This document shows, piece by piece, positions 11,786 to 36,156 of a stretch of 64,000 bases of DNA (within the stretch, counting starts at the first letter, position 1; each line of letters starts with the position of its first letter). Location: contig JADHYE010000001.1 of the NCBI GenBank assembly GCA_016782605.1, positions 78,473 to 142,472 of the forward strand, in the 5' to 3' direction. The notes below the pieces were generated by a model. That model searched no databases. It was not told the origin of the DNA and saw only the letters and a list, made by a program, of their open reading frames with translations. A program made the position numbers and the translations under genes. The stretch comes from Minisyncoccota bacterium (GTDB lineage: Bacteria; Patescibacteriota; Minisyncoccia; Minisyncoccales; RBG-13-42-11).

Positions 11786-12199
11786 TTATTTTTCTCTTTT
11801 TTTGCCGTATTTGCTTCTTTGTTTTTTTCTTCCTTCAACTCCAGCCGTATCTAAAACGCCTCTGACTATATGATATCTGACGCCTGGCAAATCTTTAACC
11901 CTGCCCCCTCTCAAGACAACCACTGAGTGCTCTTGCAGATTGTGGCCTTCTCCTGGAATGTAAGCCGTTACTTCCATGCCGTTGGTCAGCCTGACCCTGG
12001 CTACTTTTCTCAAAGCAGAATTTGGTTTCTTGGGAGTGGAAGTAAAAACCTTCAGACAAACTCCCCTTTTAAAAGGAGAATAAAAGTTTTTGGGCCGATT
12101 CTTTAAAACATTAAAACTAAAAGACAAAGCTGGCGACTTGGTGCGCTTTTTGGCTTTCTTCCTTCCTTTTTTAATTAATTGATGAATTGTCGGACACAT
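11786..12199 (-). CDS. rpsL: 30S ribosomal protein S12 (with a ~13-aa internal insertion)
   Basis: [11 protein letters not shown]...[20 protein letters not shown]...[14 protein letters not shown]. There is extra sequence between SPAL and KRGVC compared with my recollection of E. coli S12. Confidence 0.93.
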
Positions 12200-12224
12200 A
12201 AATTACAATTTATCATAAAGCCAA

Positions 12225-12842
12225 TTAAATTACAAGAGGCTGGCCGGTTACTAGAGAAAAAAGAAAATAAGCTGACTTGAAAATTAAGTTCAATCCGCCA
12301 AAGAAAATGAAGAACAGAAAAACAAAAAGTCCGTATCTTTCAAGAAACCTTCTGATTTCAAGAAGCTTTCCCGGGAAAAAAGAGAACAAAATATGTGAAC
12401 CGTCAAAGGGCGGAACGGGAATAAGATTGAAAACTGCCCAGGCAAAATTATATATAACGATTATACTGAAAAGCATCAAAAGAGGCTGGGACAAAGACAA
12501 AAATCTTATAGCCAATCCGAAAATTACTGCCAGAAGAAAATTGGTTGCCGGGCCAGCGATAGCTACTTTCAATGTTCCCCATCTCTGGTCGCGAAAATTC
12601 AAAGGATTAATCGGCACGGGCTTTGCCCAGCCGATAATCGGTCCCTTGCCCAAAGTGGCAAAAAGCAAAAGCAAAGGAACAAGAATCGTGCCCAAAGGAT
12701 CAATATGCTTTATGGGGTTCAGCGTCAAACGGCCGGCTCTCTTGGCCGTCTCGTCTCCCAAATGTAAAGCAACGCTTCCATGCGCCACTTCATGAATGAC
12801 AATGGAAAAAAATAAAATTAATAAAATAAAAACGATTTCCAT
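12225..12842 (-). CDS. Site-2 protease family (M50) membrane metalloprotease
   Basis: HEVAHG (HExxH) in the first TM helix; polytopic hydrophobic protein of 205 aa. Confidence 0.8.
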   Translation of the reverse strand: MEIVFILLILFFSIVIHEVAHGSVALHLGDETAKRAGRLTLNPIKHIDPLGTILVPLLLLFATLGKGPIIGWAKPVPINPLNFRDQRWGTLKVAIAGPATNFLLAVIFGLAIRFLSLSQPLLMLFSIIVIYNFAWAVFNLIPVPPFDGSHILFSFFPGKLLEIRRFLERYGLFVFLFFIFFGGLNLIFKSAYFLFSLVTGQPLVI

Positions 12843-13124: not shown

Positions 13125-13197
13125 CGGGGCATGGTGTAATGGTTAACATACACCCTTGGGGTGGGTGTGAGTCTGGGTTCGATTCCCAGTGTCCCGA
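13125..13197 (+). tRNA. tRNA-Pro (anticodon GGG)
   Basis: Hand-folded cloverleaf. Acceptor CGGGGCA/TGTCCCG, anticodon stem CACCC/GGGTG, loop TTGGGGT, T arm CTGGG-TTCGATT-CCCAG. Position 37 is G. CCA is not encoded. Confidence 0.85.
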
Positions 13198-13208
13198 CCT
13201 CCGAAAAT

Positions 13209-13306
13209 GGTACAGGGTAAAGGTGGGTAATTGCTATTTACCTAAGGGTTTTTACCCCGCATAATCCGAACATGGTGAGGATTTGTGCGGGGCGATTCCC
13301 TGCACC
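13209..13306 (+). ncRNA. Unassigned structured RNA downstream of tRNA-Pro
   Basis: Closing helix GGTACAGGG/CCCTGCACC. Inner hairpin CCCCGCATAATCC...GGATTTGTGCGGGG (13255-13292). Small hairpin GGTAA/TTACC. Followed by a terminator at 13321-13347. GC-rich stems sit in an AT-rich context. Confidence 0.4.
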
Positions 13307-13320
13307 CCTAAAAGTAAACT

Positions 13321-13347
13321 AAAAAACCGCTGAAATGGCGGTTTTTT
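13321..13347. terminator. Bidirectional intrinsic terminator
   Basis: AAAAAACCGC-TGAAAT-GGCGGTTTTTT: the stem is flanked by an A-run and a T-run, so it can serve both convergent RNAs. Confidence 0.7.
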
Positions 13348-13350
13348 AGT

Positions 13351-13479
13351 GGCTCTGTTTTCTAGGAAGTTTTCTCGGAAAAAGTTACAAGTGGGAATCC
13401 TAGTCCGCCGCCACGGCGGCGGAATCATTTCAGACTCCCTTAAAAAACTTTTGTACCAGAACTAACTAGATTCAGAGCC
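13351..13479 (-). ncRNA. Unassigned ~130-nt rod-like small RNA with its own consensus promoter and terminator
   Basis: The 5' GGCUCUG pairs with the 3' CAGAGCC. Further helices are CUAG/CUAG and AAAAGUU/AACUUUU, with an apical GC clamp UCCGCCGCC/GGCGGCGGA (13404-13423). The predicted TSS is 7 nt after the TATAAT hexamer. The terminator follows immediately. Confidence 0.6.
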
Positions 13480-13485
13480 AATTTA

Positions 13486-13515
13486 ATTATACATTTTATG
13501 AAGGAGGAATGTCAA
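13486..13515 (-). promoter_or_regulatory. Near-consensus sigma-70 promoter driving the small RNA
   Basis: The minus strand reads TTGACA (13515-13510), an 18-nt spacer, and TATAAT (13491-13486). Confidence 0.65.
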
Positions 13516-13651: not shown

Positions 13652-14713
13652 TCACAAATTTAAAACATCGCTGATTTGCTTTATCAAAGAAACGACAACC
13701 GGCGGCGGAAGCAAGCTGTAAGAGGGTTCTTTGTTATCATCTGGAACAAGCCAAGGCCTTTCTTTAACGATTGCTTTATCTCCTTTCCATTCGTAATAAT
13801 ATTCCGGGGTAATCTCGTAATCGTCAACAGAGCTTTTAGCAGATTTCTTAGGAACAGAATTCCTTAGAAGAATCTTGGGAATACCATAAAGGGAAAAAGC
13901 CTGGTTAATCAGTTTCCCGTCTCTTTTTAATCTGTCTTTGATCGGCTTTATGCCGAAATCATCGCCTTCCTTGCGAACCATTCTCGTTCCCCTACACTTT
14001 GGGTTGTCGCAAAGCAGATAGAATTCTTTTTTCTTTGCCTCATAGCCTATTTTGGAAGTGGGCAATAATTTAAAATTTCTTGAAGTCTGACAATGAGGAC
14101 AAACCATCCTGTATTTTATCCTTTCGTCAATCACCTTTTCCGGTACGTTAATCAAAACAAAAAAGTCGGGGTCCTCACGATAGCCGATTAAATCCCTAAA
14201 AAATAAAGCAAAGTTTATTTGGTCTAAATCCCTGGGAAAGCCGTCAAGAAAAATAGTTTTTTTCTGTCTTTTTCCGATCTCTCTTTTTACCAAAGCTAGT
14301 ATCAATTCTGTCGGCAAAAGGGTTTTTGTACTTCTTTTTTCCAAAAAAGACACCAACTCTTTAGCTGACTGCCAGCCGCGATAATTCTTTTCCAAAAAGG
14401 AAAAAAACTCCTTTTTCTTTTTCGGGTCTTTCAGTTCGTTGTCGACTCCCCGAATTATATCGCCTATCGAAAAATGCTCTATTCTTTCCGGATCAACAAT
14501 CTCAGCGAACATTTTGGAATATGTTCCCTTACCTGAATTTTTCTTGCCGACAAGATAAGCGACGAAAGTATTCCCCTTTCTGAAATATTCCCTTAATTTT
14601 TTAATCTCTTTTCCCACTTTCAATTGGAAGTACTTTTCTCTTTCTTTCGGATTATTCAAATCAAAAGTTGCTTTTACTTTCGGATTTTTAGTTTTAAAAA
14701 TTGGAAATTGCAT
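13652..14713 (-). CDS. Atypical long adenylate kinase family protein (353 aa)
   Basis: P-loop GKKNSGKGT, HFSIGDIIR, FLDGFPRD, and a zinc LID-like segment CPHC...CDNPKC...RKEGDD. Also has N-terminal, internal and C-terminal extra segments. Confidence 0.7.
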   Translation of the reverse strand: MQFPIFKTKNPKVKATFDLNNPKEREKYFQLKVGKEIKKLREYFRKGNTFVAYLVGKKNSGKGTYSKMFAEIVDPERIEHFSIGDIIRGVDNELKDPKKKKEFFSFLEKNYRGWQSAKELVSFLEKRSTKTLLPTELILALVKREIGKRQKKTIFLDGFPRDLDQINFALFFRDLIGYREDPDFFVLINVPEKVIDERIKYRMVCPHCQTSRNFKLLPTSKIGYEAKKKEFYLLCDNPKCRGTRMVRKEGDDFGIKPIKDRLKRDGKLINQAFSLYGIPKILLRNSVPKKSAKSSVDDYEITPEYYYEWKGDKAIVKERPWLVPDDNKEPSYSLLPPPVVVSLIKQISDVLNL

Positions 14714-30915: not shown

Positions 30916-33723
30916 TTATCCTTGCTTTAAATATCTGCCGGTATAGCTCTTTTTACTCTTGGCAATTTCAGAAGGAATACCCTCAGCAATAATGTATCCT
31001 CCCTTTTCGCCTCCTTCCGGCCCCAAATCAATAATCCAATCAGCATTCTTAATAAAATCCAGATTATGCTCGATTGTTACAACTGTATTTCCCTTTTCAA
31101 CCAGGCCTTTTAAAACCTGTATCAGTTTTTTAATGTCGTCAAAATGAAGACCGGTGGTCGGCTCGTCCAGAATATACAAGCTCTTGCCTGTCGCTTTTCT
31201 GGAAAGCTCGGTAGCTAGTTTCACTCTCTGTGCTTCTCCTCCAGAGAGCGAGGGAGCTGGCTGTCCCAACTGAATATAGCCCAAGCCGACTTCGTTCAAA
31301 GTTTTCAATTTCTCATAAAGACCAACGATATTTTTGAAAAAGTCCAAAGCTTCTTCTACCGTCATTTCAAGAACCTGGGCAATGTTTTTTCCTTTATATT
31401 CAACTGACAAAGTTTCCTTATTAAATCTCATACCTTTGCAATCTGAACACTGTATATATATGTCAGGCAAAAAGTACATTTCTATCTTTTTCACTCCCTG
31501 GCCTTCGCAGCTTTCGCATCTTCCTCCTTTAACGTTAAAGCTGAAACGGCCGGGTCTGTACCCCCTGACTCTCGCTTCTTTGGTCTTGGTAAACAAATCC
31601 CGAATGTATGAAAAAGCGCCTGTGTAAGTGGCAGGATTTGACCTGGGAGTTCTGCCTATCGGCGACTGGTCAACTAAAACTACTTTATTTAAAAATTCGG
31701 CTCCCAGAATTTCTTTGTGTTGCCCCGGCTCTTCTTTGGCCCTATAAAACTTTTTTAACAGGGCGCGGGCCAGAACGTCGTTCATCAAACTGCTTTTGCC
31801 GGATCCTGAAACTCCGGTAATACAAACGAACTTAGCTAAAGGCATTTTCACGTCAATATTCTTTAAATTATGCTCTTTTGCCCCCTTAACAATTAAATAA
31901 TTTTGCAGGATTTGTTTAGGCCTGGCCTCAACAGCATGTTGAGGTTTAACCTCAACGGTTTTTCTTCCGGAAAGATACTCGCCGGTCAAAGAACGTGATT
32001 CCAACAATTGTTTTGGCGTACCCTGGAAAACGATCTTGCCGCCGTGTTTGCCGGCTCCCGGCCCAATATCAACCACCCAGTCGCTCTGCAAAATAGTCTG
32101 GCGGTCGTGTTCGACAATAATAATCGTATTGCCTAAATCCTTGAGCTTTTCCAAAGTCTGAATCAAACGGCCCTGATCTCTGGCATGTAGCCCAATTGAA
32201 GGCTCGTCTAATATATAAAGTACTCCTGTCAGTTTTGAACCTATTTGCGTGGCCAGCCTTATCCTCTGTTCTTCGCCCCCTGCCAAAGTGTCTGATTTCC
32301 TGTCCAAAGTCAGATAATCCAAGCCAACATCAATTAAAAACTGCAACCGGTTTAAAACCTCTTTGATAATGAGAGAAGCGATTTTCAATTCGCTGTTTTT
32401 TAATTTAGAATTACGGCTTTTGATTAAACTTTCAAAAAACTCCTGGACCTTATTAATCGGCGTACCAACAATCTTATCAAGAGACAAACCAGCTACTGTA
32501 ACAGCCAATATTTCCGGCTTCAATCTCTTGCCCTGGCATATTTCGCACTGCTTTTCAACCATGTACTGTTCTATTTCGCTTCTGGTGTAATCGGAATCCG
32601 TTGCATGATATCTCCTTTCCAAATTAGGAATCACTCCTTCAAAGTCAGCATTACCCTGCAATATCAAATCAATGATTTTCTTTGGCAGTTCTTTGACCGG
32701 AATATCTAAAGAAAATTTATGCGTTTCTGCCAGCTTTTGCAGATGGGACCAGAAATACCCCTGCCTGCCGATTTTATGAGAAGCAAAAGCCCAAGGGAAT
32801 ACAGCTCCTTCGGCAATCGTTAAGTTTTGGTTTGGTATGACGAGCTTTGGATCAACTTCCAGCCTTTCCCCCAACCCCTGGCAGGAAGGGCAAGCGCCGA
32901 AAGGAGAATTGAAAGAAAACAATCTCGGCTCAAGTTCCGACAAAGAAAGCCCGCACTCTTCGCAGGCAAAATGCTCGGAAAAAATAAAATCATTGTCTTT
33001 TCGGCTTACCATTACTATGCCTTTCCCCAATTTCAAACCTGTTTCCAAGGAATCAATTAATCTTGATTTATCCAAACTCTTGTCTAAAACCAATCTATCA
33101 ACAACCACTTCGATATTATGCTTTTTATTTTTGTCCAAGGTTTTATCAATAATCTCTTCAATACGATGAACAACACCATCTACCCTGACCCTGACAAAAC
33201 CTGCTCTCTGCGCCTCTTCCAGAACTCCCCTGTGCTCTCCTTTCTTGCCCCTGACCAAAGGGCCGAGAATACTAATCTCGCTTTTCTTTGGAAGATTCAG
33301 AATCTGCTCTGTGATCTGATCTATTGTCTGCCGACTGATTGGCTTGCCACATTTTGGACAATGGGGCTTACCAATTCTGGCAAACAAAAGCCGGAGATAA
33401 TCATATATCTCTGTTATCGTACCCACAGTTGAACGAGGATTATGGGAAGCTTTTCTCTGATCGATTGAAATTGCCGGACTAATGCCTTCGATATAATCGA
33501 CGTCTGGCTTATCCATAACTCCCAGAAACTGCCTGGCATAAGCAGAAAGAGATTCAACATATCTTCTCTGGCCCTCAGCGTATAGAGTATCAAAAGCTAA
33601 AGAAGACTTGCCAGAGCCTGAAATGCCGGTAATGACCACCAGCTTGTCTTTCGGGATATCAAGGTTGATATCTTTTAAGTTGTGCACTCTTGCTCCGCGT
33701 ATTTTAATGTAATTTTCAGCCAT
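30916..33723 (-). CDS. uvrA: Excinuclease ABC subunit A
   Basis: Two ABC ATPase modules (GISGSGKSS and GVSGSGKSS) plus zinc modules. [17 protein letters not shown] from the ATG at 33723. The track ORF starts at a TTG at 33735. Confidence 0.96.
31926..31956. repeat. REP-like triple-arm palindrome embedded in frame in uvrA
   Basis: CCTCAACAGCATGTTGAGGTTTAACCTCAAC. The 20-mer TGTTGAGGTTTAACCTCAAC is identical to the intergenic palindrome at 57642-57661. Confidence 0.75.
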
Positions 33724-33758
33724 AAGAGTATTCAATTATACTGCAAATTTAAAAAAAA

Positions 33759-33788
33759 TTCAACGGTAGCTAGAGAAAAAGGTATAAT
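33759..33788 (+). promoter_or_regulatory. Candidate capA promoter, with the -10 hexamer only 4-7 nt from the ATG
   Basis: TTCAAC-N18-TATAAT. ATG codons lie at 33793 and 33796. Confidence 0.35.
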
Positions 33789-33792
33789 ATAT

Positions 33793-34803
33793 ATGATGGC
33801 CTACTTAAAAACAAAACTGATTATCTTGACATTTGCCGTAGCAATAATTCTTTTTATTGCTGCTTCCTTTCTGATTAATCCGAAAACAATCGAAATCTTT
33901 CGTTCCCCTATTCCAGAAGAAACAGAAAACAAAACAGTAAGCGTAATTTTGACGGGCGATATTATGCTTGATCGCGGAGTAGAATATATGATAGAAAAAC
34001 AAGAAAAAGGAGATTTCAGATTTCCTTTCCTGAAAATCGCTGATTATTTTAAAAAAACTGACATTGTTTTCGGCAACCTGGAAGGAATAATTTCTGACAA
34101 AGGAACGAAAATAGGCAGCATCTATTCTTTCCGAGCAGACCCCAAGGCAATGGAAGGCTTGGTTTTTGCCGGTTTTAGCGTAGTCTCCCTAGCCAACAAC
34201 CACGCTTTAGATTACGGAAAAGATGCTTTAGAGGATTGTTTGGTTAGATTAAAAGATTCGGGTATTGACTACGTTGGCGCCGGTTTCAATGAAAAAGAAG
34301 CTTTTTCTCTTGTTATTGAAGAAATAAATGGCACTAAAATAGGTTTCTTGGCATATACTGATTTGGGTCCTGAAGTCTGGAGAGCCAGAGAAGAAAGCTC
34401 CGGTATTGCCTGGATTGAAGATTCCGACTTTGGAAAAATTGGACAAGATATTCAGAAAGCGAAAAATAATGTCGATGTTTTAATTGTTTCGATCCATTCG
34501 GGAGAAGAATACGTTCAGGAATTAACGCCATTTCAGCTAAACTTTACCAAAATGGCGATTGAAGCTGGAGCAGATTTAATAGTCGGTCACCATCCACATG
34601 TTGTCCAAAGAGACGAAAAATACGAACAGAAATACATCTTTTACAGTTTGGGTAATTTCATTTTCGATCAAAGCTTTTCAGAACAAACTATGCAAGGAGA
34701 AATCGTTGAAATTACAATAGAAAACAAAAAGATAAAAGAAGTTACAACAAAACAAATCAAAATAAACGAATTCTTCCAACCGGAAATCTATGAACCCCGT
34801 TAG
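33793..34803 (+). CDS. CapA/PGA-cap family metallophosphoesterase-like protein
   Basis: N-terminal TM helix; motifs GDIMLDRGV, ANNHALDYG and GHHPHVVQ. The start is taken at MMAYLKTK. Confidence 0.8.
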   Translation: MMAYLKTKLIILTFAVAIILFIAASFLINPKTIEIFRSPIPEETENKTVSVILTGDIMLDRGVEYMIEKQEKGDFRFPFLKIADYFKKTDIVFGNLEGIISDKGTKIGSIYSFRADPKAMEGLVFAGFSVVSLANNHALDYGKDALEDCLVRLKDSGIDYVGAGFNEKEAFSLVIEEINGTKIGFLAYTDLGPEVWRAREESSGIAWIEDSDFGKIGQDIQKAKNNVDVLIVSIHSGEEYVQELTPFQLNFTKMAIEAGADLIVGHHPHVVQRDEKYEQKYIFYSLGNFIFDQSFSEQTMQGEIVEITIENKKIKEVTTKQIKINEFFQPEIYEPR

Positions 34804-34923
34804 AAGTCTTGGGCAGAAAAAATTAGATTAAATTTTTTTCTGCTTGTAAATAACGGGGTGTAATTAAAAACAGAAGTTTGTCTGAAATCAGCCGAAAACT
34901 GTATAAGACGAACTTCTAACGGG

Positions 34924-36156
34924 GTGAATAAATTCAAATTCCTGGACAAAAACGATATTTCTAAACTACCCAAAACCTCTGGCGTTTACGCTTTTTTTAC
35001 CCGCCGAAGCCTCGGCGAAGGCAGGAAAAAAGGAAAACAAATACTTTACGTCGGCAAAGCAACCAACATTAAAGAAAGAGTGAAAAACCACAAAAAACTT
35101 CTCAGTCAGGCTGAAAAAATAGGATATATTAAAACCGATTCTGAAATCGAAGCTTTGATTTTAGAAGCAAGCTTAATCAAAAAATACCGGCCGAAATACA
35201 ACGTTGCTTGGAAAGACGACAAGAATTATTTTTTTGTCGCAGTAACAAAAGAGAAATTTCCCGGAATTCTCATCACACACCAAACAAAACAGAAAAACAA
35301 ATACCTTGGCCCTTTTGTGGACGGTTCTTCCTTAAAACAAGTTTTAATAATCCTAAGAAAGGTTTTCCCTTTTAGAACTTGTACAACCCTGCCGAAGAAG
35401 CCCTGTCTTTGGCATCAACTTAACCTCTGCCCTGCCCCCTGTCTGACAAAAACAAAAAACTTATGTCAAAAAAACGCTAATAATATTTTAAAGATACTCC
35501 AAGGAAGAAAAAACCAGGTTTTAAATAACTTAAAAAAAGAAATGAAAATAGCTTCCAAAGAACAAAATTATGAAAAAGCAGCAAAGACAAGAGATAAGAT
35601 AGTTTATTTGGAAAGAATAATGCGCAACGCCAGAATTTTCGAACCCAATAAAGCTGATTCAACGCTTCAATCAATCTTAAAAGCTGAAAAACCGATTTCA
35701 AGAATCGAAGCTTACGATATATCCAATATCCAGGGACAGGAAGCAACAGGCTCCATGGTAACTTTTATTCAAGGAAAACCAAACAAAAGCTTTTACCGCA
35801 AATTCAAAATAAAGCTCCAGGCTAAGCCCAATGACGTGGCCATGATAAAAGAAGTCTTATCCCGCAGATTGAAACATAAAGAATGGCCATGCCCTGACTT
35901 AATATTGATTGACGGCGGCATCGCCCAATTGAATACTGCCATTAAAATGAAAAATGAAATAAACAAAAATATAAAAGCAGTGAGTTTGGCGAAAAAACAA
36001 AACAAACTTTTCATTGAAGGAAGAAAAAAGCCAATCCTGTTAAAAACTTTGCCTAAAGAAATCTTTAATCTTGTACTGCATTTGCGCGACGAGGCTCACA
36101 GGTTTGCCATAACCTACCACCGCAAATTAAGGACCAAGGCCTTGCTTCCCAGATGA
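34924..36156 (+). CDS. uvrC: Excinuclease ABC subunit C, short form lacking the C-terminal (HhH)2 domain
   Basis: GIY-YIG motif (GVYAFF...ILYVGKATNIKERV), UVR motif (YEKAAKTRDKIVYLE), and endonuclease domain (RIEAYDISNIQG...RDEAHRFAITYHR). Ends at 410 aa. GTG start. Confidence 0.85.
   Translation: MNKFKFLDKNDISKLPKTSGVYAFFTRRSLGEGRKKGKQILYVGKATNIKERVKNHKKLLSQAEKIGYIKTDSEIEALILEASLIKKYRPKYNVAWKDDKNYFFVAVTKEKFPGILITHQTKQKNKYLGPFVDGSSLKQVLIILRKVFPFRTCTTLPKKPCLWHQLNLCPAPCLTKTKNLCQKNANNILKILQGRKNQVLNNLKKEMKIASKEQNYEKAAKTRDKIVYLERIMRNARIFEPNKADSTLQSILKAEKPISRIEAYDISNIQGQEATGSMVTFIQGKPNKSFYRKFKIKLQAKPNDVAMIKEVLSRRLKHKEWPCPDLILIDGGIAQLNTAIKMKNEINKNIKAVSLAKKQNKLFIEGRKKPILLKTLPKEIFNLVLHLRDEAHRFAITYHRKLRTKALLPR

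Follow-up and report, generated by a model that had tools for sequence, protein, structure and literature searches.

A probable miniaturised 6S RNA gene in a Patescibacteria (CPR) bacterium

On the minus strand of a stretch of DNA of 64,000 nucleotides (the window) from a Minisyncoccota bacterium, a promoter and an intrinsic terminator enclose a short gene without an evident protein product, and the question raised by this locus is which kind of RNA it encodes. An earlier sequence-only reading described the product as a rod-like RNA of unknown family with the appearance of a housekeeping RNA of 6S or 4.5S type. The analysis presented here indicates that the locus is probably a miniaturised 6S RNA (ssrS-type) gene of a Patescibacteria (CPR) bacterium, equipped with its own sigma-70-type promoter and terminator. 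The RNA is a conserved, structured unit that is separately promoted and terminated, and it has the architecture and the core sequence signature of 6S RNA. Polymerase binding, synthesis of a product RNA (pRNA) and a release rearrangement are proposed by homology with known 6S RNAs.

The promoter hexamers are both perfect, and their combination (TTGACA-N18-TATAAT, 13515-13486, minus strand) is the sole 12/12 promoter match in a 2-kb scan. The 5' end of the RNA, GGCUCUG (from 13479), is complementary to its 3' end, CAGAGCC (13357-13351), and three bases (ACU) lie between the latter and the terminator; promoter, end pairing and terminator are all present as the sequence-only reading had described them. 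The gene on the upstream side (13652-14713, minus strand) ends in its own terminator at 13562-13541, and tRNA-Pro(GGG) and rpmB, downstream of the RNA, lie on the plus strand and are convergent with it, so that the RNA forms a separate transcription unit. Since the terminator of the RNA is symmetric, with an A-run as well as a T-run, it can also end the convergent tRNA-Pro/rpmB transcript. The same unit recurs in relatives: in 62 of 89 distinct homologous loci a promoter with at least 10 of 12 matches stands directly upstream of the RNA, in 50 of these 62 with a gap of 6 nt between TA(T/A)AAT and the RNA, and a terminator-like hairpin with a T-run follows the 3' end in 57 of the 89. The view that this is a stand-alone, strongly promoted, rod-like small RNA of housekeeping type is upheld. 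A spacer of 18 nt between near-consensus -35 and -10 hexamers is unusual, and it is kept in 49 of the 62 promoter-bearing loci.

Table 1. Position and anatomy of the RNA gene in the window (nt, numbering within the 129-nt RNA)
Feature	Nt of RNA	Window position	Strand	Sequence and remarks
-35 hexamer		13515-13510	minus	TTGACA; own promoter of the 129-nt RNA, 12/12 promoter match
-10 hexamer		13491-13486	minus	TATAAT; 6 bases before the first G of the RNA
Rod RNA	1-129	13479-13351	minus	GGCUCUG...CAGAGCC; 138.3 bits with covariance model R1
Closing arm, 5' strand	1-24	13479-13456	minus	P1 GGCUCUG, P2 UCUAG, AG, P3 UUCUGG
Central bubble, 5' strand	25-40	13455-13440	minus	16 nt, UACAAAAGUUUUUUAA; ACAAA nearly invariant
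Predicted pRNA start	C27	13453	minus	Third base of the 5' bubble, assigned by position; predicted pRNA 5'-GUACCAGAACUAAC
Apical arm	41-87	13439-13393	minus	About 17 bp and one internal loop
Central bubble, 3' strand	88-101	13392-13379	minus	14 nt, ACUUGUAACUUUUU; opens with invariant AC
Closing arm, 3' strand	102-129	13378-13351	minus	CCGAGAA..AAC..CUAGA..CAGAGCC
Intrinsic terminator		13350-13318	minus	AAAAAACCGCCAUUUCAGCGGUUUUUU (= ACUAAAAAACCGCCAUUUCAGCGGUUUUUUAGU); A-run/GC-stem/T-run, found on both strands

The 158-nt transcript folds as a rod with an energy of -61.2 kcal/mol (z = -7.3), and none of 200 shuffled sequences folds as well, which confirms the long imperfect hairpin that had been folded by hand. 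The rod is composed of a closing arm, a central bubble and an apical arm (Table 1). The apical arm contains a GGG/CCC clamp, an 8-bp helix (GGGAGUCU/AGGAUUCCC) and an asymmetric loop (GAAAUGAU/CUA), and its tip is an 8-bp apical helix closed by the loop CGUG. The 3' strand of the bubble (nt 88-101) lies where 6S RNAs have their "-10-like" element; its initial AC is followed by YUGG in most relatives, which matches CCC-ACCUgg in the consensus of RF00013, the Rfam family of 6S RNA.

Conservation and covariation among related loci had been proposed as checks on the sequence-only reading, and both are pronounced. A search with a covariance model (R1) and a motif-pattern scan of metagenomes yields at least 96 full-length homologues (at least 91 of them distinct) of 129-149 nt, found in Patescibacteria (Nealsonbacteria/Paceibacteria-like) genomes and in metagenomes. 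The window copy, at 129 nt, is among the three shortest of the matches listed. Homologues score 49-139 bits with R1 on the sense strand versus at most about 40 bits on the antisense strand, a difference due to the many G-U pairs. Nine pattern matches in viral contigs (L143-L151, IMG/VR) were rejected, as R1 confirmed none of them; eight of the nine share an 83-nt span and presumably represent a conserved viral sequence with a fortuitous fit to the pattern.

The genomic setting of the RNA is conserved as well. Relatives of the upstream protein occur in genome records labelled Nealsonbacteria, Paceibacterota, Staskawiczbacteria and the like, which assigns the window to Patescibacteria/CPR, and of 21 such genome loci 13 have a homologous RNA after the upstream gene; at the syntenic site of L007, L010 and L020 the RNA was not found. 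Gene order is broadly kept (radical SAM, DUF5679, metallo-beta-lactamase, ADK-like, the RNA, then tRNA-Pro/L28 on the other strand, M50 peptidase and S12). A functional tie between the RNA and the ADK-domain gene was considered and rejected: the RNA is retained also where no ADK-like gene adjoins it, and synteny extends over the entire neighbourhood, so that their adjacency says nothing about function. The upstream protein itself (353 aa) contains a domain of the adenylate-kinase type, which scores 43.5 bits with Pfam ADK; it is extended at both the N- and the C-terminus and carries CxxC...CxxxxC motifs. Identity across the clade is 50-96%, and the gene is separate from any ribosomal-operon adk.

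Two readings that dispense with a structured RNA can be weighed against these data. The rod is also an imperfect inverted repeat of 129 bp, and a palindromic repeat is indeed dispersed through these genomes (see below), so that the locus might be seen as a palindrome acting at the DNA level, either a mobile or repeat element or an inverted repeat bound by a protein. Yet each family locus has exactly one sense-strand match to R1, in most loci at the conserved syntenic position, the sense strand outscores the antisense strand, and the promoter and terminator are strand-specific and conserved, which makes a DNA-level role very improbable. An mRNA for a small protein has equally little probability. 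Its starting point is the GGGAG that stands 6 nt before an AUG in the asymmetric loop and resembles a ribosome-binding site with a start codon: the window and 63 of 91 relatives have AGGGAG-N6-AUG, which in the window opens a frame of 58 codons (13428-13252, minus strand). But the AUG is missing in 28 of 91, the frame splits into two unrelated readings with lengths from 4 to more than 67 codons and runs through the terminator in the window and 24 relatives, and substitutions keep base pairs, not codons. The statement that the locus has no credible open reading frame is thus borne out, in that no conserved frame exists.

The conserved bases of the RNA are concentrated at its centre, and variability is greatest in the apical helix and loop. 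In all 91 distinct sequences, alignment columns G59-61, A62, C154-156, A157, C158 and U160 are invariant, and the family consensus of the bubble is GACAAAMGUUYUUUYA (5' strand, 16 nt) facing ACYUGGAUUNUUUU (3' strand, 14 nt).

Covariation supports the paired arms and leaves the bubble open. Under a 6S-type pairing scheme 88.2% of cells pair versus 77.3% in shuffles, compensatory double changes are found at 28 of 35 pairs, and the covariation score of 0.389 exceeds that of shuffles (0.197) and of registers displaced by 1-3 columns (at most 0.133). All seven P1 pairs and all five P2 pairs covary, P3 is 90% paired, and the covarying positions of the apical arm include all six apical-helix pairs, the loop-closing pair and four further pairs of the clamp helix. 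The putative pairs across the bubble (AAA/UUU, GUU/AAC) covary at the level of slid registers (0.078 vs 0.060-0.070), and the duplex energy of the two bubble strands is -1.78 kcal/mol for native versus -1.74 kcal/mol for swapped partners. The AAA/UUU stretches could pair, with a predicted unpaired probability of about 0.5. The 16/14-nt central region behaves like an open bubble that is conserved in sequence and has G-C pairs as clamps. Two structural details of the sequence-only reading do not survive this comparison: the proposed AAAAGUU/AACUUUU helix lies inside the apparent open bubble and is without covariation, and the suspected kink-turn is contradicted by its supposed UCU bulge, which covaries as Watson-Crick pairs with AGA/GGA (columns 64-151, UA 69/CG 19; 65-150, CG 81/UA 6/UG 4; 66-149, UA 29/UG 22/CG 18).

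The assignment to 6S RNA is drawn from comparison with RF00013 in scans of 4,227 Rfam families, in which the RF00013 gathering cut-off of 46.4 bits is an operational threshold and not a biological property. In the window, the scans return four tRNAs only and, at the permissive threshold, terminator-driven noise and chance sub-threshold matches to short stretches of the rod; the window copy has no match to RF00013 even at E<=10. The sequence-only reading, which had found no SRP, tmRNA or RNase P signature, was right in so far as neither the gathering nor the permissive threshold (E<=10) gives the window copy a credible Rfam match. The model R1, in turn, does not match E. coli 6S RNA (ssrS).

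Relatives of the window RNA are more informative. Among 34 family loci scanned at the permissive threshold (97 kb in total), seven give sub-threshold matches to RF00013, with scores of 31.5 (L127), 31.1 (L064), 29.6 (L101), 29.3 (L105), 23.7 (L095), 21.3 (L045) and 19.8 bits (L032), the four best of which all come from members of 137-145 nt. Each of the seven covers model positions 1-187 on the same strand as the R1 match and within 5 nt of its boundaries, and these 97 kb of family loci, as distinct from whole genomes, contain no further 6S match. Targeted scans of all 4,227 families give the 6S match an E-value of 0.0026 in L095 and of 3.8e-5 in L127, where 6S is the sole family with E<=1. 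The alignments lack about 25 model positions of the apical arm and about 15-20 of the closing arm; their high-confidence portions comprise P1, the 5' bubble together with GGGAG, CACCCACCUG and the CUUG at the apex.

The same positions carry the invariant bases of the family. The RF00013 consensus reads ...gAaaauuuuuauaauaGGGagcc...CUUG...gggcaCCCACCUggaA... as printed and ...CCgAaaauuuuuauaauaGGGagcc...CUUG...gggcaCCCACCUggaAcagCaGG... in the reading taken from the alignment of locus L059, and with it coincide the family's GGGAG...CCCACYUGG, the 5' bubble GACAAA..UUYUUU and the apical CUUG. GGGA, CCCAC.U and ACAAA align to consensus positions at high posterior probability, the apical loop (CUUG/CGUG) aligns with the CUUG of the consensus, and the 5' bubble of RF00013 (gAaaauuuuuauaaua) has the same length (16 nt) and the same pattern, A-rich then U-rich, as that of the window RNA. 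With an invariant core that matches the 6S consensus and relatives that give full-length sub-threshold matches, the description "unknown family" is not supported, and the lineage is most likely of the known 6S kind and not a new kind of system.

These comparisons also bear on the 4.5S half of the earlier suggestion. A signal recognition particle (SRP) RNA with a divergent domain IV would share with the window RNA its size of about 130 nt, its hairpin-rod shape and its strong, housekeeping-type expression signals. In SRP RNA conservation lies at the apex, in a GNRA loop and Ffh-binding loops. The window RNA has neither; its family shows the reverse pattern, a conserved centre and a most variable apical helix that ends in CUUG or CGUG, and no SRP family (RF00169 / RF01854) matches at E<=10. 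The probability of an SRP RNA is accordingly minute, and of the two types suggested, 6S stands, by its core signature and the RF00013 matches, and 4.5S falls.

A further alternative is a clade-specific structured RNA with another partner or function (a scaffold, a decoy or an RNA of the Ms1 type), its likeness to 6S RNA being convergent or a relic. All Rfam scores are sub-threshold and the window copy has none, the arms are unusually short, and the invariant unpaired bases (ACAAA, A62 and the AC after CCC) would also suit a sequence-specific protein site. Against this, the bases that are invariant here are also the conserved ones of the RF00013 consensus, where they occupy equivalent places in the same architecture, and 6S is the sole family among the 4,227 scanned with repeated, co-terminal, same-strand matches. 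Another partner is, on balance, distinctly improbable, and a 6S RNA is the preferred reading.

A second RNA of this kind came to light in locus L059, which is unrelated and had been fetched owing to a chance pattern match inside a nearby coding region. R1 gives a weak match there (21.5 bits, E=0.0032 in 13 kb). The 157-nt rod RNA at 12100-12256 (plus strand) has a promoter-like sequence, judged by eye, and a terminator, and stands in front of a tRNA gene. Its match to RF00013 (30.6 bits, E=1.3e-4) is under the cut-off, and it is probably another unannotated, divergent 6S RNA. Recognised by R1 as well as by RF00013, it serves as an intermediate that connects the family with 6S RNA.

Known 6S RNAs imitate an open promoter and in this way bind to the housekeeping holoenzyme at its active site, with a "-10-like" element in the 3' bubble strand and a "-35-like" region in the apical arm; pRNA is then transcribed from the 5' bubble into the closing-side helix, whereupon the RNA is refolded and the enzyme freed (PMC8876501). 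In B. subtilis 6S-1 RNA, pRNA synthesis starts at nt 40 with GTP as the initiating nucleotide (PMC8876501). If the window RNA acts in the same way, the rod with its open 16/14-nt bubble would mimic an open promoter, fill the active-site cleft of an RNA polymerase that carries the housekeeping sigma factor, and damp transcription globally. With nucleotides in good supply, the 5' bubble strand would serve the polymerase as template, synthesis beginning at the near-invariant C27 with the product 5'-GUACCAGAAC..., and the growing pRNA would unzip helix P3 (UUCUGG/CCGAGAA), upon which the RNA would refold and the enzyme be released. A C is found at the predicted start column in 87 of 91 sequences. 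The pRNA start of E. coli 6S RNA, U44, is the third base of the bubble in our own indexing, and we take it to be equivalent to C27.

Two rearrangements can be examined in the family alignment. With a bound 14-nt pRNA simulated, 57 of 91 sequences form a hairpin in which YUGG from the 3' bubble pairs with CCRG, the P3 strand thus set free. This hairpin resembles the release hairpin of the E. coli type; it is pairable in 82.9% of cells, its covariation does not exceed that of shuffles, and as a modelled structure it is plausible. [quoted passage not shown]

The window RNA resembles canonical 6S RNA in its overall plan of a closing arm, a central bubble and an apical arm, with both arms interrupted by small loops; in its 16-nt 5' bubble, GGG/CCC clamp, ACCUGG-like start of the 3' bubble and CUUG-type loop; and in being a stand-alone gene with a strong housekeeping promoter. 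It differs in size, the family measuring 129-149 nt as compared with about 180-200 nt, in that both arms are much shorter, and in scores against RF00013 that lie under 46.4 bits or are absent. The neighbours are also different: E. coli ssrS lies between zapA and the 5-formyltetrahydrofolate cyclo-ligase gene, whereas the window RNA follows the ADK-domain gene and faces tRNA-Pro/rpmB.

The short arms have a counterpart among engineered RNAs. Truncated B. subtilis 6S-1 RNA, reduced to the bubble and two short arms, binds sigma-A polymerase, templates pRNA and is released (Ganapathy et al. 2022, PMC8876501), completing the 6S cycle in vitro with an affinity that is about 10-fold lower, and the "-35-like" apical region is not strictly needed in vitro (PMC8876501). 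Those RNAs are laboratory constructs, while the window RNA belongs to a natural, conserved lineage that is known here from its sequence alone. Ms1 of Actinobacteria is likewise a 6S-like rod with a bubble, filling the 6S niche in a phylum in which the standard model detects no 6S RNA; it binds core polymerase instead of the holoenzyme, and its relation to 6S RNA is described as one of structure only (PMC9130861). The window family, by contrast, keeps the 6S core motifs. The apical arm of the window RNA may be too short for a "-35-like" contact. A bolder and unlikely version of the 6S reading is that the RNA has lost much of both arms, perhaps with the "-35" mimic, and holds the polymerase by the bubble alone, or that its partner has changed to the core enzyme, as for Ms1, or to a CPR-specific factor. 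If this were true, the RNA would be the smallest 6S-type regulator found in nature and could serve structural work as a ready minimal model.

As a probable 6S RNA, the window RNA would place a 6S-type global regulator of transcription in a clade of Patescibacteria/CPR and would indicate that even such reduced genomes retain one. A literature search, in a collection that is itself incomplete, found no paper on 6S RNA in CPR/Patescibacteria, and small RNAs go unmentioned in a review of Patescibacteria biology. The standard Rfam 6S model gives no reportable match in this clade, which amounts to an annotation gap, and 91 distinct sequences with a working covariance model are now usable for annotation. 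As a natural counterpart of the engineered "bubble plus two short arms" 6S RNA, the family also bears on the question of how little RNA is needed to trap RNA polymerase.

Several repeats and sequence fragments occur in and near these loci. A dispersed small palindromic repeat has 11-bp terminal inverted repeats (CCCCGTTAGAA...TTCTAACGGGG) that are 50-135 bp apart, and it looks like a MITE or REP-type element. Copies lie at 34795-34924 of the window, L003 1712-1792, L012 6505-6651, L046 6737-6797, L100 6354-6486 and elsewhere, and 67 occurrences of the 11-mer were counted over 1.07 Mb of fetched loci, as against about 0.5 estimated by chance. The window copy fills the gap between the plus-strand open reading frames 33682-34803 and 34924-36156. 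In 17 family loci a hairpin ending in ...ATAATTTCTAACGG abuts the 5' end of the RNA (among them L015 5225-5311, L046 and L092, about 90 nt 5' of the RNA). In these three named loci the true promoter stands farther upstream; after it come another copy of the P1 strand, (A/G)GCCCTGC, and next the repeat element. This arrangement looks like an insertion of the palindromic repeat into the 6S gene with target duplication; the transcript there would carry an extra 5' hairpin and may need processing.

A different motif, AACCCCGCCCTCTAAGyTCkTGAATTAAGrTTA, is found 0-40 nt 3' of the RNA, in place of an immediate terminator, in eight loci (L023, L067, L075, L048, L033, L076, L139 and L015) and six times elsewhere, and may be another repeat element. 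Just beyond the terminator of the window RNA, positions 13283-13306 (minus reading AGGGGTGCAGGGAATCGCCCCGCAC) hold a fragment in which 14 of 16 bases match the start of the reverse-complemented tRNA-Pro gene that relatives have in this place (L002: GGGGTGCCGGGAATTG). The intact tRNA-Pro(GGG) gene lies about 100 bp past it, at 13125-13199, and the fragment may be the relic of a tRNA duplication or integration event.
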